NCBI GenBank assembly: GCA_943788935.1
Contig: CALSSE010000003.1
Coordinates: forward strand, 150,493 to 214,492
Source: an uncultured bacterium
GTDB lineage: Bacteria; Myxococcota_A; Bradymonadia; UBA7976; VGTA01
Reading direction: 5' to 3'
DNA: 64,000 nt
This document shows, piece by piece, positions 23,453 to 34,364 of the stretch. Under the pieces are notes generated by a model. The model worked only from the letters and a program-made list of their open reading frames with translations. It searched no databases and had not been told where the DNA came from. The position numbers and the translations under genes are program-made. Numbering within the stretch: position 1 is the stretch's first letter; the number at the start of each line of letters is the position of its first letter.

Positions 23453-24613
23453 CTATTTACCCACTCTGTACTTCACCTTATCTCTCTTGGCGCTCTGCTT
23501 AGGCACGATCATCGCTAGTCCTTTACGTTTAGTAGGCAAGGTACGAACTAGCTCAATCGTTATTGGAATCTCAGGGAGAGCTGACACCATATACCAACTC
23601 AGCGCGCCTGGATCATGAAACTCACGACCGTTCACTTTTAATATAATATCATTTCGCTTGATCCCTGCGATGTCGGCCGGTCCTCCCTCTGCAACTCTCT
23701 TAACCCTCACTCCTACAGGAGTCATATACCCCGCTCTCTTTGCTCGATTATAGCTCACTTTGGAGAGGTTCAAACCGACGTAGCTTCGCTTAAACTCTCC
23801 CGACTGTCGAAGTTGTTCTATAACAGGCTTTATTCTCGAGATCGGTAACGCGAGAGACATGCCGACTGCGCCTTCACGAATCGCAGTGTTCATCCCAACC
23901 ATAAATCCCTCTTGATCGATTAATGGCCCACCGCTATTGCCGGGATTGAGAGTGATGTTGGTCTGAATAAACCCAGGGAAATATCGAGCCCATTCAGAGA
24001 GCCTAGCTCCTCTATGATGAGCGCTAATGACCCCTGTAGATAGGGAATAAGGCATTGAATAAGGGTGACCTACCGCGGCGACCCAGCTCCCGATAGGAGG
24101 GAGAGCTGTTCGATAGCAAGCGCTAGGCAGATCGGCGAGGGCCTCAGGTGTTTGAGTCTCCAACAAAGCGATATCGAGTTCTTTATAGACCCCAACAAGT
24201 CGAAGACGAATGACCCTTCGATGGTGCGTTCGAGCGCGTAGCTCAGAGTACCCTTTAATCACATGAGCGTTGGTGACGATATACCTCTCCGAGCCCCAAA
24301 TGATCGCGCTCCCTTCACTCTTGGGGACAAAGGTGTCCTTAGTTTTGGGTATCTTCGCCTTGACGATCTCTCCGGCAGCGATACTCAGTACCCATGGTTT
24401 AGTGAGCGAAAACGCTTCCGTGAAATCTTGGGGGGCGCGTTGATTATGAGCCTGACCTAAGTGATGACGAAGAGTCGCTCTTCCTCTTGGATCTACAGCC
24501 CCGCTGGCACAACGGACCTCTTGAGCAGAAGAACTTTGAGGGATCAATACTCCTAATAAGAGCCATAACAGGATAGCCGTTACGAGAAGTGTATGCCGCT
24601 CTAGGTTCATCAA
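23453..24613 (-). CDS. HtrA/DegP-like trypsin-family serine protease with a C-terminal PDZ domain
   Basis: Signal peptide. S1C catalytic motif TLNPGNSGGPLIDQEGFMVGMNTAI. C-terminal PDZ-like region. Confidence 0.75.
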   Translation of the reverse strand: MMNLERHTLLVTAILLWLLLGVLIPQSSSAQEVRCASGAVDPRGRATLRHHLGQAHNQRAPQDFTEAFSLTKPWVLSIAAGEIVKAKIPKTKDTFVPKSEGSAIIWGSERYIVTNAHVIKGYSELRARTHHRRVIRLRLVGVYKELDIALLETQTPEALADLPSACYRTALPPIGSWVAAVGHPYSMPYSLSTGVISAHHRGARLSEWARYFPGFIQTNITLNPGNSGGPLIDQEGFMVGMNTAIREGAVGMSLALPISRIKPVIEQLRQSGEFKRSYVGLNLSKVSYNRAKRAGYMTPVGVRVKRVAEGGPADIAGIKRNDIILKVNGREFHDPGALSWYMVSALPEIPITIELVRTLPTKRKGLAMIVPKQSAKRDKVKYRVGK

Positions 24614-24625
24614 GAGATTGAGCGC

Positions 24626-24979
24626 TTATTGAGTTACAGAGAGGTAAGCGACCTTCAGCTCTTTAATAGAGGCCGCTAAATGACGCGACTCCTCATAGCT
24701 GAGGTGACCCTTAGTGCGCTTCTCGAGGACTTCAAGTATATCAATCATCTGTTTGGCAACCTCGAGATCGATCTCCTCACCATAGTCATTGATAATGCCT
24801 AGATGAACGAGCGCTGCGGTCTTCAGTGAGAGGATATGAGTCAGAAACACAACCTCATCTGGAGAACTATTTCTTGGAATTTGAGGAAGCTCATACTCTT
24901 TATCAGCCCCACGCTCATCGATCGCAGCGTCACCTTGAGGACCGACGTTAATGACCCTCTCAGTTGTCGACTTGCTCAT
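24626..24979 (-). CDS. DUF1844-like small protein
   Basis: The core FLTHILSLKTAALVHLGII resembles DUF1844. Confidence 0.4.
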   Translation of the reverse strand: MSKSTTERVINVGPQGDAAIDERGADKEYELPQIPRNSSPDEVVFLTHILSLKTAALVHLGIINDYGEEIDLEVAKQMIDILEVLEKRTKGHLSYEESRHLAASIKELKVAYLSVTQ

Positions 24980-25208
24980 GAACTACTCCCTCAGCGGCCT
25001 CAGTGGCCTCGGCGACCTCAGCGGCTTTCGCAGCCTCAGCGGCCTCAGCGGCCTCAGCGGCCAATTCAGCTTCAGTTTTTCGAAACCGCACATTTTCAGA
25101 GAGGTCAGGGAGCTGTCCTAAGTGTGTAACGAGCTCTTCTTGACTGAGCTCTCCACTCCTTAATTGTTTGTCACGGAGTCGCTTATCTAATGTCAATGTG
25201 GTGATCAA
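24960..25208 (-). CDS. Small hypothetical protein with (AEAAE)n tail
   Basis: 82-aa ORF overlapping the previous ORF by 20 bp. Low-complexity Ala/Glu repeat. Weak coding support. Confidence 0.3.
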   Translation of the reverse strand: MITTLTLDKRLRDKQLRSGELSQEELVTHLGQLPDLSENVRFRKTEAELAAEAAEAAEAAKAAEVAEATEAAEGVVHEQVDN

Positions 25209-25318
25209 AGTGTCACTCCTTCTGTGGGGTATGGCAGAACATTATTAAATGTGCTCACAACGCCTCCTATGTCAAGGGCGCAATGACCGCTTAAGAATGA
25301 AATCGACCTAAACGTTAC

Positions 25319-26341
25319 TTATCGATCCTCTATACTAAGTTTGAGCTCTTCCAAGGCCTCACTCATACTCCGCGCAGGTTGATAACCTAGATCTTTTTTT
25401 GCGCGCTCGATGTTGAACCAATGAGCGGTAGAGAGCTGCTCTGCGATAAACTTAGTCATCATCGGCTCTTCTTTTATACTAAATAATCGATACATTCGCT
25501 CTAGTATATTGCCTACCATCATCGCGACTCGAGGAGAGATCGTTTTCCGTGGATAGCTTACACCGTGAGCTTCTAAAATCCCTTCGATAAGTTCAACGAT
25601 TGGCCATGGCTCATCTTGAGTAATAAAGTAGGCTTGGCCCGCACAAGCCGCCCCCGAGTGTAGACGATCGAAAGCGTCCCAATGTGCTCGGGCTGCATCT
25701 TCGATATAGACTGAATCCACAAGTTTATGGGGCGCTAGATACCTGAGTTTTCCTCTTCGTGCTCGGTCGAGTAATCGAGGAGTCAAGTGACGATCTCCTG
25801 GACCCCAGATCAAATGAGGCCTTAGCGCGACGACATTAAGTGTATCGCTCTGCGCCTGAAGTACTCGACGCTCGGCCTCCGCTTTTGTTCGCGGGTAGTC
25901 AGCGATAAAATGAGAGGGATATGGTAAGCTCTCATCTTCTCCTTCGATATCACCTCCAGCGTGAATAACGCTCGGGCTACTCGTAAAGATAAGTTTAGGA
26001 ATCTTAAGCTGCTGACAGGCCTCAATCACTTGATCTGTCCCGCCGATATTTGTGCGCTCATATTCTCTCGTATCCCCCCAGGCACCGGCTTTGGCTGCGA
26101 CATGAAAAATCGCGTCACAACCGCTAGCTAGCGAGAGGATAAAACCATCCTCTGCGATATCCCCTCGGGTCATATTTACCCCCAGGGATTCAATGTCTGG
26201 ATAAGACCCCCTAGCGACCCCTCTGACTTCGACCCCTCTAGCTAAGCCCTGTTTGGCGATCTCAGCGCCTAGAAAGCCACCGGCGCCAGTGATCAAGACT
26301 CTTGGTTTCATTTCTATCTTTTGGTCAACTGTAACGCTCAT
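25319..26341 (-). CDS. oleD: OleD: NAD(P)H-dependent 2-alkyl-3-ketoalkanoic acid reductase (3-beta-HSD/extended SDR family)
   Basis: Rossmann motif VLITGAGGFLGAEIA and YxxxK (YPRTK). It is the last gene of the oleABCD-ordered cluster. Confidence 0.7.
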   Translation of the reverse strand: MSVTVDQKIEMKPRVLITGAGGFLGAEIAKQGLARGVEVRGVARGSYPDIESLGVNMTRGDIAEDGFILSLASGCDAIFHVAAKAGAWGDTREYERTNIGGTDQVIEACQQLKIPKLIFTSSPSVIHAGGDIEGEDESLPYPSHFIADYPRTKAEAERRVLQAQSDTLNVVALRPHLIWGPGDRHLTPRLLDRARRGKLRYLAPHKLVDSVYIEDAARAHWDAFDRLHSGAACAGQAYFITQDEPWPIVELIEGILEAHGVSYPRKTISPRVAMMVGNILERMYRLFSIKEEPMMTKFIAEQLSTAHWFNIERAKKDLGYQPARSMSEALEELKLSIEDR

Positions 26342-26381
26342 AGTGACAGTTCTCCTCTGCTAAAGCGCCCATTCTTGGGAA

Positions 26382-28148
26382 CTAAACTTTAATAACTCGC
26401 TCCGAATGCGTCACGACCCATGCCTGTAAGATCTCACGTTTAATCTTAGCATTATGACGAGTGTCTACAGGGAAACTCGGGTGTTGTATAATGCCATAGA
26501 GACCTCCAAGCCAGTTCGACTTATCGATGTGTTGCTTGATGTTATGGCTTACCGTATCCCATGTGGCTCCATCGATCAGCTCTACGCAGACCACTGGTCC
26601 CCGTTGGTTTGCCACGAGAGCTGTTCTCTGTATCCCCTCTAATTGATTAAGCGGACCCTCAACGCAATGAGGTAGCCAACGCTCCATTACTTCCTCTTTA
26701 ACAATATCGACTCTGTGACTTTTTCTACCACACAGCCAGAGGAACCCATCTTGATCAAGATAACCAAGGTCACCCATACGGTGACTCATGTGCTGTCCCG
26801 ATATCTCATCCACACCGGGAGGGGCGCCAATGATCTTGGAGAGCCTATCCCCTTGAGGATGAGCGAGGTAGCCTTGAGTCGTCGAAGGGCCGTAGACGAC
26901 TACCTCCCCCACAAGTTGAAACGCATTTTTTGGAGTGATCACTTCTCCTAGGGTGAGAGCGACCTCTAGCGGCTCAGCATCTTTCCAGGTCGAGATCATC
27001 TCATCATTGACTCGAATAATGTGTACCGCGACCCCCGGTGTTGGCCTGCCAACACAAACCCCAAGACCTCGACGGTGCCCAAGTCGGCCTCTCTCTATCA
27101 CTTCTTGGCAGGAGATAGAGGACACAGGTAATGACTCTGTCGCTCCATAAGGAGTAAAGATTTCAGCATCTTGATGACAAGATGCTCTGAGCGTCTCCAT
27201 CTCTTCAACCGGAACCGGAGCGCCTGCAGAGATGATCCTCTTTAGAGTTAAAGATCTTGGTTTGACTTTGACCGCAGCGGAGAGACGCCTCAATAAGGCG
27301 GGAGAGCAAAAAAGATTCTCTGCTCCAAAATCATTAATGACCGCGAAGATCTCTTCAGGATCTGCTTTAGCAGGAGCACCATAGTCCATGATCGGGAAAA
27401 CCGCGCTCATCCCTAATGCAGGATCAAAGAGGGCAAATAAGGGGAAGGTAGGCACATCAAAAGCGCCTCGTCGAAAAGGATACAATGACTGTAACAACTC
27501 TACCTGAGCAGTAAAGTGACGATGCCGATAGATCGCTCCTTTGGGAGCGCCTGTGCTCCCGCTTGTATAGAGGATGGCTGCCACCGCGTTAGGATCACTC
27601 TCCGCTAGATAATGAGAGGGCGTATCCGAGAAGCCTGTGTAAGCCTCTCGTAGATGATGATCTCCTAGCCAATGATGGATGATTGACCACCATCTGCCTC
27701 TCCATCCATTTCTTTGCGCCTCTCCGACCACGATGGTGCGCTTCACCGTTTTCTTACCCCAACCGAGAAGGATTCTCGCTAAATGGGCGATTGAGATCCC
27801 AATAAATAATTCGGGAGCGGCGGCGGCGATACACCCCTTTAAGTCTCGCTTATCCATACCCGGATCGATGAGGATAGGTACGATCCCAGCTTTGAATAGT
27901 CCAAAGGTGATCGCAAATAGCTCAGGCCCAGGGCGGACCATAAGTACCGCTTTAGCACCTTTCTGAATCCCGATATCTGCTAACCAAGCCGCGATGTCTG
28001 CGCTCTCTTGATTAAGTTGTTCGAAGGTCTGAATGGTATAAGCGCGACGGCCTTCTCGATTCTTACCAAGCGCACAAATCACCGAGGGTAGATTAGGGGT
28101 CTCCTTCGCTTTAGATATCAAGTGCTCGGCGATATTTTTGATGGTCAT
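26382..28148 (-). CDS. oleC: OleC: AMP-dependent synthetase/ligase family beta-lactone synthetase
   Basis: AMP-binding motif LYTSGSTGAPKGA. Length 588 aa. Sits between the oleB and oleD homologues. Confidence 0.75.
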   Translation of the reverse strand: MTIKNIAEHLISKAKETPNLPSVICALGKNREGRRAYTIQTFEQLNQESADIAAWLADIGIQKGAKAVLMVRPGPELFAITFGLFKAGIVPILIDPGMDKRDLKGCIAAAAPELFIGISIAHLARILLGWGKKTVKRTIVVGEAQRNGWRGRWWSIIHHWLGDHHLREAYTGFSDTPSHYLAESDPNAVAAILYTSGSTGAPKGAIYRHRHFTAQVELLQSLYPFRRGAFDVPTFPLFALFDPALGMSAVFPIMDYGAPAKADPEEIFAVINDFGAENLFCSPALLRRLSAAVKVKPRSLTLKRIISAGAPVPVEEMETLRASCHQDAEIFTPYGATESLPVSSISCQEVIERGRLGHRRGLGVCVGRPTPGVAVHIIRVNDEMISTWKDAEPLEVALTLGEVITPKNAFQLVGEVVVYGPSTTQGYLAHPQGDRLSKIIGAPPGVDEISGQHMSHRMGDLGYLDQDGFLWLCGRKSHRVDIVKEEVMERWLPHCVEGPLNQLEGIQRTALVANQRGPVVCVELIDGATWDTVSHNIKQHIDKSNWLGGLYGIIQHPSFPVDTRHNAKIKREILQAWVVTHSERVIKV

Positions 28149-28202
28149 CGTAGTGTCCTCAAGTCGCTAATATCCTCAAGTCGCTAATATCCTCAGTGAG
28201 CA

Positions 28203-29177
28203 TTAAGCAGGGTGAGGAGCGTGATATAAGAAGTTAACAATCTTAGGGATCAGATCGCTCTCTTCGTCTTCGAGAATATAATGCCCACTCTCTGGATAAA
28301 TATGGCTCTCAGCATCGGGGAACCGGCTCTTCCAAATCTTGAGGAAAGTGTGATCAAAAACAAAATCTTTAAGACCCCACCCAATGAGCATCGGCTTATC
28401 CGTCAGCGTAGGGAGTTTAGCTTGGGTCTCTTCAACGACCTGATAGGCGAGATCTCGTCGATGAAGTGGGATATCTTTGACGAATCGATGTGTAGCGACC
28501 CGCGTCGCCCAAGAGTGGTAAGGAGCGGTGTACGCTCGCGCGATCTGCTTGGAGAGGGGTTTCATACAAGCCCAGCGGGTGGCCAAGCCACTAAAGGCAT
28601 TGAGTCCTTGTATAAGGACCTGGCCCAGCCTGGTGTTCCGACCTAGCCACAGCGTGAATGGGAGGCGCTTATCTCCGGGGATATGAAAAGCGGAAGTATT
28701 TAGAACGACTATTTTGTTGATACGTTGTGGGTAGCGAGCCGCATAAGCCATTCCGATCATCCCACCCCAATCGTGGACGACGAGATTAATCTGCTCTTCC
28801 CCTAGCCCTAAAGAGTCCAACCATTCTTCGAGGTCATCGACCCTTTGAGAGAGGGTGTATTGATAGGCTCTATCATCTGGCTTATCCGAGAATCCACAGC
28901 CAATATGATCAAGAGCGAGGGCCCGACCACCGACCTCACTCACCGCAGTGAGGAGGTTCCGATAATAAAATGACCATGTCGGGTTTCCGTGTACCATGAC
29001 CGTCGGAGCTACAGTATGTGATGACTCTATTCGAGAGGGTAGATCAACATAGCTCATAGTATGCCCAGAGCGCAGAGTTAATCGTCGTGTATCAAAAGGA
29101 TAGAGCGCTTTATAAGGTTTAAACCAATCAGGGTGGCTCAGCGCCTTATCACTCACAGCGTGATCTCCTCTCCCCAT
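28203..29177 (-). CDS. oleB: OleB: alpha/beta-hydrolase (haloalkane-dehalogenase-like) beta-lactone decarboxylase
   Basis: VMVHGNPTWSFYYRN and the nucleophile elbow LVVHDWGGMIG. Overlaps the oleA stop by 25 bp. Confidence 0.75.
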   Translation of the reverse strand: MGRGDHAVSDKALSHPDWFKPYKALYPFDTRRLTLRSGHTMSYVDLPSRIESSHTVAPTVMVHGNPTWSFYYRNLLTAVSEVGGRALALDHIGCGFSDKPDDRAYQYTLSQRVDDLEEWLDSLGLGEEQINLVVHDWGGMIGMAYAARYPQRINKIVVLNTSAFHIPGDKRLPFTLWLGRNTRLGQVLIQGLNAFSGLATRWACMKPLSKQIARAYTAPYHSWATRVATHRFVKDIPLHRRDLAYQVVEETQAKLPTLTDKPMLIGWGLKDFVFDHTFLKIWKSRFPDAESHIYPESGHYILEDEESDLIPKIVNFLYHAPHPA

Positions 29178-30199
29178 ACGACCTCCACCATTTGACAGTT
29201 GAGTCCGCTCCCTATCGCCATAAGAGCGATTCGTTGGTCAGGCTCAAACTTACCCTCAGCCGCTGCCTTAGAGAGGGTGATCGGTACGGCAGCAGGTCCA
29301 ATATTACCGAGCTCATCAAAGGTAATATGCGCTTTCTCAAGGGGTAAACCTAATGTCTGTCCTAGGGTCATTGTATGAACTTGACTCACTTGGTGCAAGA
29401 TAAGGTGGTCAAGTGCGTCAGCGCTCCAGTCCATCTCCTCTTGAGTGATGCGCCACACTCGATCTGCGAGACCGACACCTGCAGAGAGTAAGCGCTTAGT
29501 GTCAGTCTTCATGAACGTAGGGTGGCCTTCGCAGAGGTCAGCGTGCTCTGTTTGAGCGAGGAGCACACCACCACGATATTGAGGAGCCTTCGGGGCGAGC
29601 TCTTTACGACACAAGATCATGGCCGCTCCTCCCGACCCAAGTGTAAGAGAAGCAAACTGAGACCGGACATCAAGCGCTGTGGTCTTAGGATCTAAGAGCC
29701 TCTCTATTGTCGCTTCTGTGACCTCTCTGCTGCTCTCACCATCGACTACGATCCCATAGTCGATCCGCCCTAGCTCGATGAGCGTAGCGATAAAGTCCAT
29801 CCCGTTGATGAAGCCGAGACACGCATTTCCGATATCGTAGTTGAGCGCCCTCTGTGAGAGACCTAAATGATGATGAACTCTGCAAGCTGTAGAGGGTTCA
29901 AGAAAATCTCGACACACCGATGTGTTCACCAAAGCGCCAATAGACTCAGGTGAGATCCCAGCTCTCTCTATCGCGACTCGACCTGCGAGGGTCGCGGCAT
30001 CACTCGGTTTTGTCCCTTGATCCCAATATCGTCTCGCTCTAATACCGGCAACCTTCTCTAATATACCTCGCCTCATCCCTAAGCGCTCGAAGGTCGGAGC
30101 AAGTCGGTCTTCGAGAGCTGCTGAAGTAATGCGATGTGGTGCATCAGCGTGAGCTAGACTTTTAATACTGACATGTTGAAAAGGCTTAAAATGTTTCAT
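29153..30199 (-). CDS. oleA: OleA: FabH-like thiolase-fold acyl-CoA head-to-head condensing enzyme
   Basis: KAS III-like fold with an active-site Cys context YDIGNACLGFINGMD. It is the first gene of the four-gene ole operon. Confidence 0.75.
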   Translation of the reverse strand: MKHFKPFQHVSIKSLAHADAPHRITSAALEDRLAPTFERLGMRRGILEKVAGIRARRYWDQGTKPSDAATLAGRVAIERAGISPESIGALVNTSVCRDFLEPSTACRVHHHLGLSQRALNYDIGNACLGFINGMDFIATLIELGRIDYGIVVDGESSREVTEATIERLLDPKTTALDVRSQFASLTLGSGGAAMILCRKELAPKAPQYRGGVLLAQTEHADLCEGHPTFMKTDTKRLLSAGVGLADRVWRITQEEMDWSADALDHLILHQVSQVHTMTLGQTLGLPLEKAHITFDELGNIGPAAVPITLSKAAAEGKFEPDQRIALMAIGSGLNCQMVEVVWGEEITL

Positions 30200-30298
30200 A
30201 ATTAATCTCTAAAGGGGATGGATTGTATGAGGATAAGATGAGTCGAACTCGTTGGAATCTTGGAGATTGATGATCGCTATGCTAATGACCTGAAATCT

Positions 30299-31588
30299 TT
30301 ACATTCTCCAGTAGGTATATCCTTGTGGCGCACCATCATAGATGCCTTTGATATCCATAAAGACTCCACCATTCTTGACGACATCACAGAGCTCTTGAGG
30401 AGAATGAGACGTGTATTCGTTGTGCGCAACAGCGACAATAGTGGCTACATATTCGCCCATTGGACGATCACTGAGTACGATCCCATATTCTTCCTTCACC
30501 TCATGAGGGTCAGCGTGAGGGTCTACGATATCGACAGTCAGCCCAAAGCTCTCAAGTTCATTGACCAGATCAGCGACTTTAGAGTTCCTAATATCTGATA
30601 CGTTCTCTTTAAAGGTGATCCCTCTCACCAAAACTTTAGCATCTTTGAGACCAAAGTCACTCTTCACCAAAAGTTGTATGAGTCGTTTCGCGATAAAGGC
30701 AGGGATCCCATCATTGATCCTTCGTCCGCTCAATATAACCTCGGGGATATAACCTATCTTTTGTGCTTTATAGGTGAGGTAGTAAGGGTCAACACCGATA
30801 CAATGTCCTCCAACGAGTCCCGGCGAGAACTTGAGGAAGTTCCACTTTGTAGCGGCGGCCTCGATAACGCCTTTGGTGTCAATATCCATTCGGTCAAAAA
30901 TCATTGAGAGCTCATTCATGAAGGCTATATTGAGATCTCTTTGACTGTTCTCTATCACTTTTGCCGCTTCAGCGACCTTCACCGAGCTCGCCCGATATAC
31001 ACCGGCGGTGATAATAGAGGCATAGACCGACTCAATGATCTCCGCTGAGGCCGGGGTATCACCGCTCACTACTTTCAATATCGTGCAAACAGTATGCTCT
31101 GCATCTCCAGGGTTGATCCGCTCTGGAGAGTAACCATAGTGAAAGTCAGTTCCTGCGACGAGACCGCTCTCTTCCTCTAGGATCGGTAAGCAGTCTTCCT
31201 CTGTGCAACCAGGGTATACGGTCGATTCGTAGACTACGATATCACCCTCTGAGAGGACTTTACCGACAGTTCTCGACGCGCCAAATAGCGGTCTGAGGTC
31301 GGGAGTATTATGTTTGTCAATAGGCGTGGGTACAGCGACCACATAAAAGCTACATTGGCTCAGCTCATCGATTTGATCTGTAAAGTGGATATCACACCCC
31401 TCAAAGGCGCTGGCAGAGAGCTCTCTTGAGGGATCTTCACTACGGGTCATCATCTGCACTCGTTCAGCGTTAATATCGAAGCCGACAACCCTAAATTTAC
31501 GAGCGAACTCTAAAGCGAGGGGCAAACCGACATACCCGAGACCAATCACTGCGATACTGGTCTCTTTGTTAGTGATTTTCTCTAGCAT
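30299..31588 (-). CDS. Nucleotide-sugar dehydrogenase (UDP-glucose/GDP-mannose dehydrogenase family, TviB/WbpA-like)
   Basis: N-terminal Rossmann IAVIGLGYVGLPLALEFARKF. Length 429 aa with a catalytic Cys region. Confidence 0.8.
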   Translation of the reverse strand: MLEKITNKETSIAVIGLGYVGLPLALEFARKFRVVGFDINAERVQMMTRSEDPSRELSASAFEGCDIHFTDQIDELSQCSFYVVAVPTPIDKHNTPDLRPLFGASRTVGKVLSEGDIVVYESTVYPGCTEEDCLPILEEESGLVAGTDFHYGYSPERINPGDAEHTVCTILKVVSGDTPASAEIIESVYASIITAGVYRASSVKVAEAAKVIENSQRDLNIAFMNELSMIFDRMDIDTKGVIEAAATKWNFLKFSPGLVGGHCIGVDPYYLTYKAQKIGYIPEVILSGRRINDGIPAFIAKRLIQLLVKSDFGLKDAKVLVRGITFKENVSDIRNSKVADLVNELESFGLTVDIVDPHADPHEVKEEYGIVLSDRPMGEYVATIVAVAHNEYTSHSPQELCDVVKNGGVFMDIKGIYDGAPQGYTYWRM

Positions 31589-31890
31589 AGCTATATCCTT
31601 AAGTAGAAGACGTAGCCTCTATATCCGATTTAATCTCTAATGTCAGCGAATCTGTTGAATAATAATTGTCAAGATAAAGACCATGCTTTGAAGATGAGTT
31701 CAGCCAATAGATAATAAGAATAAGATCAAGGCTATATAGATCGCTTAAAACACCTACATTCTTTTATGAATATTCGACGAGCAACAATGGTAGTGGGCTA
31801 GTGATTACAAGCGTTTAGTAACCATAACTCGCGTAATGTCCATAGAATCTCTAAAGTGTCAAAGTCAGCGTAGCTATGTGGAGGTAGATA

Positions 31891-32523
31891 ATGACTGATA
31901 TACACATACTCTTCTTTCCATGGCTTATCACTCCCATTTTGTTTTGGGCTCCCATAAGTGATGCCAACGGATTATTTGAAGTCACTCTTGGCTCGACCCA
32001 TCCTTCGGGGAGCACTCTAGACGCTGAACCTAGCTGGGGAGGACAGCTCACATTAGGCTGGGGAGGTAAACTACCTACTATGGGGAGTGGGAGCGCTATT
32101 TATGGGTATGGAGCGATTCGACATGATGCACTAACTCAACGAGGTCACCTCTCCTTAGGCTCTCCTTCTCTAGAGCGGTCCCAATGGACTCCGAGCTTTG
32201 GCCTGAGATTTTATAACGCGACGTCAGATCATTGGAGACTGTGGCTAGATTTAGGTCTAGGATGTACTTTTGATCGAAGCGAGGTCTCGTTTAGGGGGAT
32301 CGGACCCCGGCAACCTTTCTCCGGCGAGACCGGTACACTCTCGATAGGCGCAGGGCTTCAATACAAAATATCGGCAGGGCTCTTACTCTCTTTGTCATAT
32401 GAGCAACTGTTTTATATGAGCCCTGATCAGCTAGGCTTTGCAGAAGAGGCCTTATTAACCGGTTCAGAACCCTCTATTAGCGGTCGTGGGCGATGGGGCG
32501 TTGGGATCGGGTTTTATCTATGA
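31891..32523 (+). CDS. Putative small outer-membrane beta-barrel protein
   Basis: Signal peptide. Alternating Gly/aromatic beta-strand-like segments. Terminal GVGIGFYL aromatic end. Confidence 0.35.
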   Translation: MTDIHILFFPWLITPILFWAPISDANGLFEVTLGSTHPSGSTLDAEPSWGGQLTLGWGGKLPTMGSGSAIYGYGAIRHDALTQRGHLSLGSPSLERSQWTPSFGLRFYNATSDHWRLWLDLGLGCTFDRSEVSFRGIGPRQPFSGETGTLSIGAGLQYKISAGLLLSLSYEQLFYMSPDQLGFAEEALLTGSEPSISGRGRWGVGIGFYL

Positions 32524-33488
32524 GATTTTATATATCGAGCATCATAATCAACTTGATCTGTTTAATCTTTATCAACCTTAACCTCGTATCAGGGACCAGT
32601 AACGCGGCCGCTTGGACAGGAGGGGTCACCGGCTCGTTGAGTATTGGTTCAGATGAGCGGCGTCCGGTCTCGGGTGCTGGCAGTTTAGATCTATTAGAGG
32701 GCCTATCCCTGTTGGGAACCATTTATATTGATAGGGATCATCGAGGAGTCTTTCAGCTCAAGCTAGACCCCTCTGACCTCAGTGACTTCAGCGGGAGAAT
32801 TAATACACGCCTTGAGCTTCCAGATGACCTTAGAGCGCAGGATGCTCCTCTCGTCACCTACCAAGTTTATTCTTCTAATGGACAGCTCTTATTTAACGGA
32901 GAGAGCGTCGCTGGGTGGGCTGAACTAGAAGGACAAAGCGAGCGTGAGCTCACCATTAGCTTTGAGTTAACAATCGCCTCTCGAGGAGTCGCCGAGGGAG
33001 AGCAGCTCCTCATCTTTAGCGATCGCTTAGTGCTAATAAACCCCAACGACCCGCAGGCCACTATGGCTACTGACGTCATCATCGGCGCTGCTCCTAGAGC
33101 TGATAATAATCACAATGAAGATCGCTTCGATGATGAGATCACCATCAGCGAACAGGGCTGTGACTACGACAGCGACTATGATAGTGACTATGATAGTGAC
33201 TATGATAGTGACTATGATAGTGACTATGATAGTGACTATGACAGCGACTATAGCAGTGGTAGCGAGGAGATCAGCTGCGATAGTGACTCGGGAGATAGTG
33301 ACTCTAGCAGCGATAGCTGTACAGATGACGAATGGGCCGCTGAAGCGACTACAAAGAGAGCCTACTCTAGCAACGCTCGTCAAGCGCTTAAGCGCTGGCG
33401 TCTCCTTAATCGACTGCTCCCTCTCCTCTGTTCATTACTCTTAGTCAGAATCTGGCGCCGACTACTCTCACAGGGCATAGAGCACTAA
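32493..33488 (+). CDS. Secreted acidic protein with (DYDS)n repeats
   Basis: Signal peptide. 9-bp repeat gactatgatagt at about 33170-33250 gives (DYDS)n. The Cys-hydrophobic-RR C-tail (CSLLLVRIWRR) is weakly MYXO-CTERM-like. Confidence 0.45.
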   Translation: MGRWDRVLSMRFYISSIIINLICLIFINLNLVSGTSNAAAWTGGVTGSLSIGSDERRPVSGAGSLDLLEGLSLLGTIYIDRDHRGVFQLKLDPSDLSDFSGRINTRLELPDDLRAQDAPLVTYQVYSSNGQLLFNGESVAGWAELEGQSERELTISFELTIASRGVAEGEQLLIFSDRLVLINPNDPQATMATDVIIGAAPRADNNHNEDRFDDEITISEQGCDYDSDYDSDYDSDYDSDYDSDYDSDYDSDYSSGSEEISCDSDSGDSDSSSDSCTDDEWAAEATTKRAYSSNARQALKRWRLLNRLLPLLCSLLLVRIWRRLLSQGIEH

Positions 33489-33554
33489 TAGAGATATCAC
33501 TAACAATGATCAGTCATGGTCAGATCAGTCATGGTCAGATCAGTCATGGTCAGA

Positions 33555-34364
33555 TCAGACGTAGCCACGACTCAACAGCTCATCAATAGCCTTCAAGAGA
33601 TGATCTTCGCTCATCAGAGTCCCTCTATAGGTCTCTGCGCCTATCAGCGAGTGACAGAGATTAAGGCCTGATTCTCGTTCATCTGACTTTACGTCGAGAC
33701 GATAGTGGTCAAGCGCCTGACCATTACCCTCGCTGAGGTCGATGATCAGATGTGGACTAGCGCTCCCGATACACCTAGTTAATGGAAAAGAGGAGATGGT
33801 GTTTAGCGCTGTTAAGAGCTTTGGGCCGATCATTTGTGGTGCGATATGCTCCTCATCAACGCGTCTAATCACTGATTGACAAGCATAAATATAATAATCT
33901 AAGAAAGGATTATCCCTTTCAAAATAGCACAGGGCATTACAGACACTCCGGTAAACCTTCCAAGTCATCTTATGAGAGTTCGTTGAGCTCTTATGAGCAA
34001 CTCGCTTGTCTCGTTTGGGCTGTACCCAACGCTCCTGACCGAAACCGAATGTCCCTTGAGGGAAGCTAAAAGCCCTTGGATTAAAAATCAAAACGTCGGC
34101 GTCAAACCATATCACCCGCCGATAGCTCTTGAGAGCCTCTCTAATCGCTAAGAGACGTCCAAGGTCACTCAAGATTGGGCCTCGATGACCGACCTTAAGG
34201 ACAAAGTCTTGGGGGAGGGGGCGGAACAGCTCATCTCCCATGTAACTGTACTCCCAACCTCTCAAAAGACAGAGTTCTCTGACACTGTTCATGCATCGGT
34301 CAATCCATAAGGGGAGAGGTCCATCCTTAAACGACTGAATCAGCAGAGTCTCAGACAAGCCCAA
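33555..34364 (-). CDS. Hypothetical protein, possibly DXD-type glycosyltransferase-like
   Basis: SDLGRLLAIREALKSYRRVIWFDADVLIF resembles the Gly_transf_sug/Caps_synth DXD region. Overlaps the upstream gene by 14 bp. Confidence 0.3.
   Translation of the reverse strand: MGLSETLLIQSFKDGPLPLWIDRCMNSVRELCLLRGWEYSYMGDELFRPLPQDFVLKVGHRGPILSDLGRLLAIREALKSYRRVIWFDADVLIFNPRAFSFPQGTFGFGQERWVQPKRDKRVAHKSSTNSHKMTWKVYRSVCNALCYFERDNPFLDYYIYACQSVIRRVDEEHIAPQMIGPKLLTALNTISSFPLTRCIGSASPHLIIDLSEGNGQALDHYRLDVKSDERESGLNLCHSLIGAETYRGTLMSEDHLLKAIDELLSRGYV

Follow-up and report, generated by a model that had tools for sequence, protein, structure and literature searches.

A predicted oleABCD cluster for head-to-head olefin biosynthesis in an uncultured relative of Myxococcales

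In an uncultured bacterium akin to Myxococcales metagenome-assembled genomes (MAGs) and itself represented by metagenome assemblies only, positions 25319 to 30199 of the window (the whole 64,000-nucleotide stretch of DNA that was analysed) very probably hold an oleABCD cluster for the established head-to-head route to olefins. This identification draws on the presence, order and families of the genes, on their catalytic residues and on synteny; by homology, their products are predicted to have the activities of Ole enzymes and to yield an olefin. All four ole genes are co-located, oleB included, and each of the four proteins matches Ole enzymes far better than generic families, which supports the preliminary description of the locus as a complete oleABCD operon. 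The affiliation is based on the nearest genome contig, which belongs to an uncultured Myxococcales MAG, and on a single homologue with an NCBI name. As had also been stated, the system itself is known: ole genes were reported earlier in Plesiocystis pacifica (Sukovich et al. 2010, as cited in PMC3098273) and in Myxococcota MAGs (PMC10176705). The ole system is therefore not new for this lineage, and knowledge of the pathway is unchanged. A literature search for oleABCD combined with Myxococc* gave no match.

The four genes lie on the minus strand. The first, oleA (29153-30199; 348 aa), encodes a thiolase-fold protein predicted to carry out head-to-head condensation of acyl thioesters. It is followed by oleB (28203-29177), which encodes a predicted beta-lactone decarboxylase of 324 aa from an ATG at 29177 or 317 aa from a GTG at 29156; by oleC (26382-28148; 588 aa), encoding an AMP-forming enzyme and predicted olefin beta-lactone synthetase; and by oleD (25319-26341; 340 aa), encoding an extended SDR of the 3-beta-HSD family and predicted 2-alkyl-3-oxoalkanoate reductase. 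The coordinates and lengths stated in the preliminary description agree exactly with the ORF listing. The motifs it quoted were all located (HGNPTWS, HDWGG, YTSGSTGAPKG, GAGGFLG and YxxxK, the last as YPRTK), and its four family assignments agree with both Pfam and NCBIfam.

The spacing of the genes was likewise as described, with an oleA/oleB overlap of 25 nt and further gaps of 54 nt and 40 nt. The length of the overlap hinges on the choice of start codon: the eighth codon of oleB as listed is the GTG at 29156, and a start there would reduce the overlap to GTGA, shared with the stop codon of oleA; the genes overlap with either start. Close OleB homologues are 307 aa long and start near the query GTG, and the overlap with oleA is 4 nt in the related locus L011. 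Ahead of each of the four genes lies a purine-rich sequence similar to a ribosome-binding site, weakest at oleA. Taken together, the overlap, the 40-54 nt gaps and the ribosome-binding-like stretches make it most likely that oleABCD forms one transcript. Most of the oleB-oleC gap is occupied by a perfect 17-nt tandem repeat on the minus strand (TGAGGATATTAGCGACT; 2.4 copies at 28156-28195; Tandem Repeats Finder, 100% matches), every copy of which contains a GAGGA ribosome-binding-like motif. The repeat was not found in the oleB-oleC gap of two related loci (L007 and L011).

OleA is clearly set apart from FabH. It matched the Xanthomonas OleA structures 3FK5/3ROW with 352 bits (E 2e-104), compared with at most 84 bits (E 8e-23) for the best FabH, about 270 bits under the OleA-specific score. 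The alignment with Xanthomonas OleA runs over 336 residues without a gap at 50.3% identity, and the catalytic residues of the Xanthomonas enzyme are all conserved in it: E101, C127, H269 and N299 correspond to XcOleA Glu117, Cys143, His285 and Asn315, of which Glu117 is OleA-specific. Thus, the catalytic Cys that the preliminary description had singled out for inspection is present as C127. The NCBIfam model PRK09258 gave 446.5 bits (cut-off 285), and Shewanella OleA matches the same model. With 50% identity to the Xanthomonas enzyme and 37% to that of Shewanella, the query protein is nearer to the former.

OleB is an Abhydrolase_1 protein (Pfam), a subfamily-III haloalkane-dehalogenase-like alpha/beta hydrolase with the motifs HGNPTWS at residues 63-69 and HDWGG at 135-139. 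Its pentad N65, D136, W137, D271 and H299 is invariant in an alignment with homologues from Shewanella, Colwellia, Singulisphaera, one Elusimicrobia MAG and one Myxococcales MAG, so that the catalytic Asp and His that were to be looked for in this protein (D136 and H299) are both in place. The pentad aligns to N63, D129, W130, D258 and H286 of DhmeA (PMC10503415), which is also the best solved structure for OleB (8OOH/8CKP; E 4e-35, 125 bits). The fold and the Asn-Asp-Trp-Asp-His pentad are common to OleB and the subfamily-III dehalogenase-like proteins DhmeA, DrbA and DmbC. However, DhmeA reaches only 125 bits, compared with 313 bits (BLAST) for the hydrolase whose gene stands between oleA and oleC in Shewanella; OleB is 52.5% identical to that hydrolase over 295 residues, and the query gene occupies the same position. 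Several homologues carry the JGI name cis-3-alkyl-4-acyloxetan-2-one decarboxylase. NCBIfam has no curated OleB model, and its top matches to OleB are haloalkane dehalogenase models, which stay under cut-off for the query and for Shewanella OleB alike.

OleC is an AMP-binding protein (Pfam) that scored 554.5 bits on PRK09274 (cut-off 478), a model on which the Shewanella OleC control scored 830 bits. Its adenylation motifs are intact (YTSGSTGAPKG 194-204, YGATE 334-338, GDLG 459-462, GRKSHRV 474-480 and NAKIKRE 566-572), and a full-length comparison with Shewanella OleC gives 38.6% identity. Its scores on the curated equivalog models fell below the cut-offs, at 503.6 bits on OlefBLtnSynXan (NF045786, Xanthomonas; cut-off 900 bits) and 483.6 bits on OlefBLtnSynShew (NF045785, Shewanella; cut-off 850 bits). 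The best generic fatty-acid-CoA ligase model gave 133 bits, so that the best OleC model scored about 3.7 times as high, and this difference (504/484 versus 133 bits) places the protein with OleC and not with generic acyl-CoA ligases. No solved structure was near enough for an active-site check, the best being NRPS adenylation domains (E 3e-16).

A similar pattern was seen for OleD, a 3Beta_HSD protein (Pfam) with the motifs GAGGFLG at 19-25, TSSPS at 120-124 and YPRTK at 149-153, and 43% identity to Shewanella OleD. It scored 380.3 bits on oxyalk_red_OleD and 379.9 bits on oxyalk_red_Shew, both below the 580-bit cut-off of these equivalog models (NF042422, NF042423) and about 2.5 times the score of the next model, HpnA (153 bits). 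Here too, no solved structure was near enough for an active-site check, the best being a sterol decarboxylating dehydrogenase (E 3e-31). The NCBIfam equivalog cut-offs for OleC and OleD mark lineages, not function, since the true Shewanella enzymes also fail the Xanthomonas models: Shewanella OleC scored 610 bits, under the 900 cut-off, and Shewanella OleD scored 378 bits (cut-off 580), to which the 504 and 380 bits of the query are comparable. Because the cut-offs are lineage-specific, genuine ole clusters from lineages other than Xanthomonadales and Shewanella receive generic annotation. Under NCBI rules the query OleC, OleD and OleB would all carry generic names.

The order of the genes is the canonical one, as the preliminary description had it, being the same as in Shewanella oleABCD, where A-B-C-D lie on one strand (L010). 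It repeats in the related metagenomic loci L007, L012 and L011, the contig of the last stopping inside oleD, and the oleA-B-C order is kept in L013. Since the identical order recurs at independent loci, a chance origin of the four-family arrangement is hardly possible.

Homology to the ole systems of Xanthomonas and Shewanella suggests a sequence of reactions. OleA (Cys127, with Glu101, His269 and Asn299) would catalyse the Claisen condensation of two fatty acyl thioesters to a 2-alkyl-3-oxoalkanoic acid, which OleD would reduce with NADPH to the 3-hydroxy acid. OleC would then adenylate the carboxylate with ATP and close the cis-beta-lactone, from which OleB (nucleophile Asp136, base His299, acid Asp271) would release CO2 to leave a long-chain cis-alkene retained in the membrane. 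Both the pathway steps and the use of OleB as the marker dividing olefin from beta-lactone clusters have been described (PMC7064751, PMC6463001). The chain length and unsaturation of the product depend on the host acyl pool.

The most probable of the alternatives is that the genes are a true oleABCD cluster that is silent, or gives no detectable olefin under normal conditions, in which case the prediction of membrane alkenes would fail though the annotation is right. Gene presence is indeed no guarantee of product, as Photobacterium profundum SS9 has oleABCD and no detectable hydrocarbon (PMC6463001). Moreover, no promoter-like signal was seen upstream of oleA: a scan of 24400-32200 for sigma-70 promoters and intrinsic terminators yielded a lower number of sites than shuffled sequence did, none of them positioned to delimit an operon, and the intergenic DNA between oleA and the upstream dehydrogenase gene held no conserved motif when aligned across the window, L007 and L011. 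However, the four reading frames are intact, the catalytic residues are conserved, and the cluster proteins keep 65-84% identity in a related MAG, a level consistent with purifying selection. We regard a silent cluster as unlikely.

Less probable still is that OleA, OleD and OleC have a beta-lactone natural product of the lipstatin or nocardiolactone kind as their end product, with the hydrolase serving in resistance, tailoring or some other role. Lipstatin synthesis uses two OleA homologues (LstA and LstB) that form a heterodimer, whereas a single OleA is encoded here with no pair of the LstA/LstB type; nor does a P450, glycosyltransferase, NRPS or other tailoring gene adjoin the cluster. What speaks for a beta-lactone product is that the lipstatin LstABCD and nocardiolactone clusters have the beta-lactone intermediate and OleA-, OleC- and OleD-like enzymes in common with the olefin pathway (PMC7064751), and that the query OleC and OleD scores lie under the olefin-specific equivalog cut-offs. 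Nevertheless, such clusters are defined by the lack of oleB (PMC7064751), whereas in the window a well-conserved hydrolase gene sits exactly between oleA and oleC, its product having an intact pentad and 53% identity to the Shewanella protein in the OleB position. The presence of oleB thus argues for an alkene end product, as does the 50% identity of OleA to the Xanthomonas olefin-pathway enzyme. Finally, the notion that these are four unrelated adjacent housekeeping genes (FabH, a haloalkane dehalogenase, a fatty-acid-CoA ligase and a sugar epimerase or steroid dehydrogenase) retains next to no probability, for although Pfam offers generic family names only and dehalogenase models head the NCBIfam matches of the hydrolase, it is effectively refuted by the gap between the OleA and FabH scores, by the recurrence of all four families, identically ordered, in distant taxa, including Shewanella, and by the Shewanella model control, in which a genuine OleB also stays under the dehalogenase cut-offs.

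As an olefin cluster, the locus resembles the biochemically and structurally characterised OleABCD of Xanthomonas campestris and Stenotrophomonas in having the same four families encoded by four separate genes, and its OleA has identical equivalents of the catalytic Glu, Cys, His and Asn. It differs in that OleC and OleD reach 504 and 380 bits on the Xanthomonas models, under the cut-offs of 900 and 580, and in its host, an uncultured Myxococcota-like bacterium as opposed to a gammaproteobacterium. Clusters of the Micrococcus luteus type in actinobacteria represent the same pathway and enzyme families (PMC7064751), with oleB and oleC fused; in the window the two are separate, with the 54-nt gap between them. 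With Shewanella the A-B-C-D order is identical, at identities of 53% for OleB, 43% for OleD, 39% for OleC and 37% for OleA. The oleABCD genes of the S. oneidensis MR-1 type make a 31:9 polyunsaturated hydrocarbon from intermediates of the Pfa synthase. Had pfa (PUFA-synthase) genes occurred, they would point to a polyunsaturated product of the Shewanella type; Pfam scans of 20 further ORFs of the window, including every ORF >700 aa, contained none.

With this cluster, a further uncultured lineage, probably affiliated with Myxococcota, joins those predicted to make membrane olefins, which is of relevance when estimating how much hydrocarbon is produced in aquatic environments by organisms other than cyanobacteria (PMC10176705). 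Its divergent Ole enzymes, with OleA at 50% identity to Xanthomonas and OleC at 39% to Shewanella, also enlarge the pool available for biofuel and beta-lactone enzymology.

Upstream of oleA and on the same strand lies a gene (30299-31588, minus strand; 429 aa) that had been called a nucleotide-sugar dehydrogenase at a distance of 100 bp. The position, strand and family assignment hold good, and the distance measured is 99 nt. The protein scored 366 bits on TIGR03026 (cut-off 190), and the closest match was TviB, at 481 bits on a model with a cut-off of 592. In L007, L011 and L012, which are close relatives, the gene also stands next to oleA; none accompanies the ole genes of L013 or of Shewanella. 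The gene is taken as genomic context, and a role as a fifth pathway gene was rejected as unproven, the linkage being confined to a close clade.

Within this uncultured Myxococcota clade, the ole genes are always preceded by the TviB-like UDP-sugar dehydrogenase and are followed downstream by a conserved trio, consisting of a small acidic ORF with Ala/Glu repeats, a DUF1844 protein and an HtrA-like protease. It is conceivable, if distinctly improbable, that the dehydrogenase, the ole genes and the trio act as one envelope-remodelling unit, in which alkene synthesis might be co-regulated with the synthesis of surface polysaccharide or the handling of envelope stress, and the product might be iso-branched or polyunsaturated, as in the lipids of marine myxobacteria.

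The four ole genes lie consecutively on the minus strand of the window, in the order oleA (29153-30199, 348 aa), oleB (28203-29177, 324 aa), oleC (26382-28148, 588 aa) and oleD (25319-26341, 340 aa). These ORFs coincide exactly with those of the preliminary description, which had proposed an oleABCD olefin operon from the sequence alone, and all of the motifs that it quoted were located, namely HGNPTWS (residues 63-69) and HDWGG (135-139) in OleB, YTSGSTGAPKG (194-204) in OleC, and GAGGFLG (19-25) and YPRTK (149-153) in OleD. The spacing was also borne out, with a 25-nt oleA/oleB overlap as annotated and gaps of 54 nt and 40 nt between the remaining genes. The identification itself proved right: all four families, their order and the catalytic residues of OleA and OleB agree. 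The G+C content of the cluster (about 0.50-0.51, compared with 0.45-0.52 for the window) does not mark it as an outlier.

The annotated 25-nt overlap may overstate the true one. The eighth codon of the oleB ORF is GTG (29156, minus strand), and the oleA stop codon overlaps it in the sequence GTGA. Close OleB homologues are 307 aa long and, when aligned, start at about this position, and the oleA/oleB overlap is 4 nt in the related metagenomic contig L011. Since a GTG start would match both the homologue length and the L011 arrangement, the true overlap is perhaps 4 nt; oleA and oleB overlap under either start codon. Purine-rich sequences resembling ribosome-binding sites precede each gene (GGAGG for oleB, GAGGA for oleC, GAGGAG for oleD and a weak GAGA for oleA) and, together with the overlap and the short gaps, lead us to infer that the four genes are co-transcribed. 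A consensus promoter and terminator scan of the cluster region gave no informative signal, and no conserved motif was found upstream of oleA.

The query OleA matched the crystal structures of Xanthomonas OleA (3FK5, 3ROW, 4KU5 and others) with an E value of 2e-104, compared with 8e-23 for the best FabH match. Its alignment with Xanthomonas OleA is gap-free over 336 residues (50.3% identity) and places E101, C127, H269 and N299 at the positions of X. campestris Glu117, Cys143, His285 and Asn315; an equivalent of Cys143, the residue singled out for checking, is thus present. Glu117 and His285 are mechanistically important according to papers cited in PMC7064751. The protein also passed NCBIfam model PRK09258 (446 bits; cut-off 285), which Shewanella OleA matches as well.

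OleB is an alpha/beta hydrolase (Pfam) whose nearest solved relative is DhmeA (E 4e-35), the only solved haloalkane-dehalogenase-like enzyme of subfamily III, the subfamily in which X. campestris OleB has been placed (PMC10503415). OleB has the subfamily-III pentad in N65, D136, W137, D271 and H299, which include the catalytic Asp and His residues that were to be checked (D136, D271 and H299); all five positions are invariant in an alignment with Shewanella, Colwellia, Singulisphaera, Elusimicrobia MAG and Myxococcales MAG homologues. Homologues are plentiful, and several carry the JGI label cis-3-alkyl-4-acyloxetan-2-one decarboxylase, which is the OleB reaction. The query shares 52.5% identity with P0112, the hydrolase encoded between oleA and oleC of Shewanella. 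In the literature, olefin clusters are told apart by their oleB gene from oleACD clusters, which make beta-lactone natural products (PMC7064751); by this criterion the query cluster belongs with the former. The cluster has a single oleA, and Pfam scans of its genes and of further window ORFs found no tailoring genes beside it.

OleC scored 504 and 484 bits with its best specific NCBIfam models, a pair of equivalogs for olefin beta-lactone synthetase, and passed PRK09274 with 554 bits (cut-off 478); the next unrelated ligase model scored 133 bits. OleD scored 380 bits with each of two 2-alkyl-3-oxoalkanoate reductase models, compared with 153 for HpnA. Neither protein reaches its curated equivalog thresholds, which are set at 900 and 850 for OleC and at 580 for OleD. 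As a control, the Shewanella Ole proteins were scored against the same model library: OleC reached 610 bits on the Xanthomonas model and OleD 378 bits on the Xanthomonas-type model, each below its cut-off. Because the Shewanella proteins also fall short, these cut-offs delimit lineages rather than function, and the query scores are consistent with a third, divergent Ole lineage. For a residue-level comparison, no solved structure was near enough to OleC or OleD; the generic adenylation motifs of OleC and the SDR catalytic motifs of OleD are intact.

In Xanthomonas, OleB, OleC and OleD work as a complex. By homology, OleA would make a beta-keto acid by head-to-head joining of two fatty acyl thioesters, and OleD would reduce this acid with NADPH; OleC, with ATP, would make a beta-lactone, and OleB would decarboxylate this to a cis-alkene (PMC6463001; PMC7064751). 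The query OleA is 50% identical to that of Xanthomonas, which takes ordinary fatty-acid-synthase acyl chains, but only 37% identical to that of Shewanella, which takes intermediates of the Pfa synthase; no pfa genes turned up when 20 other ORFs of the window, among them all those longer than 700 aa, were scanned with Pfam. Carrying the genes need not lead to a product, since Photobacterium profundum SS9 has oleABCD and gave no detectable hydrocarbon (PMC6463001). Among marine myxobacteria, Plesiocystis pacifica is reported to carry ole genes (PMC3098273, citing Sukovich et al. 2010), and oleC genes are known in Myxococcales and Myxococcota metagenome sequences and MAGs (PMC10176705). The locus thus adds a new, uncharacterised member to a known system, within a lineage already expected to have it.

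An identical OleA is encoded on six contigs from metagenomes (one from ENA assembly ERZ10646689, five from Logan assemblies of ERR97693xx-series runs), and the neighbouring genes are the same on each. Among species-representative genomes, the nearest is an uncultured Myxococcales MAG (L007), with identities of 84% for OleA, 70% for OleB, 65% for OleC, 72% for OleD and 82% for the dehydrogenase encoded upstream. The latter (30299-31588, minus strand like the ole genes, 429 aa) lies 99 nt from oleA and is a homologue of TviB-like UDP-N-acetylglucosamine 6-dehydrogenase (481 bits; cut-off 592). L007 and the related contig L012 keep the order dehydrogenase, oleA, oleB, oleC, oleD, small ORF, DUF1844, HtrA-like protease, as does L011 as far as its contig extends. 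Linkage of the dehydrogenase upstream of oleA is confined to this Myxococcales-like clade (L007, L011 and L012). The more distant locus L013 (OleB 61% identical) has oleA-B-C only, without it, and the Shewanella genes (thiolase, P0112, AMP-binding enzyme, 3-beta-HSD reductase) form a canonical oleABCD in query-like order but with unrelated neighbours. Since the dehydrogenase is missing beside both, the ole genes are the unit that is conserved, and the sugar dehydrogenase is a lineage-specific neighbour. Elsewhere in the window, a PEGA-domain Ser/Thr kinase, FHA and PrkA proteins and an adenylate cyclase fit a Myxococcota-like genome.

In L013 (7001-9616), oleABC is followed by an opposite-strand gene of 951 aa in place of oleD, and a Planctomycetota locus has an OleA homologue of 41% identity. 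Directly downstream of the query oleD lies a small minus-strand ORF (24960-25208, 82 aa, no Pfam match), in which 8.2 copies of a 9-nt repeat (24989-25062) code for an Ala/Glu-rich tract. Next come genes for a DUF1844 protein (24626-24979) and for an HtrA-like protease of the Trypsin_2/PDZ type (23453-24613). The last two also follow oleD in L007 and L012, and L012 has a small ORF at the matching position. Most of the 54-nt oleB-oleC gap is a perfect 17-nt tandem repeat, TGAGGATATTAGCGACT (28156-28195, minus strand, 2.4 copies), which gives three copies of GAGGA, a ribosome-binding-like motif, ahead of the oleC ATG. Two other contigs of the same organism have a gap of equal length; the repeat is absent from the gap in L007 and L011. 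On the plus strand, 32493-33488 encodes a 331-aa acidic (DYDS)n repeat protein without a Pfam match, the repeats arising from a 12-nt tandem repeat at 33160-33251 (7.7 copies, 92% matches). A perfect 15-nt tandem repeat, GATCAGTCATGGTCA (33508-33558, 3.4 copies), sits in the short gap between this ORF and the convergent minus-strand ORF at 33555-34364.
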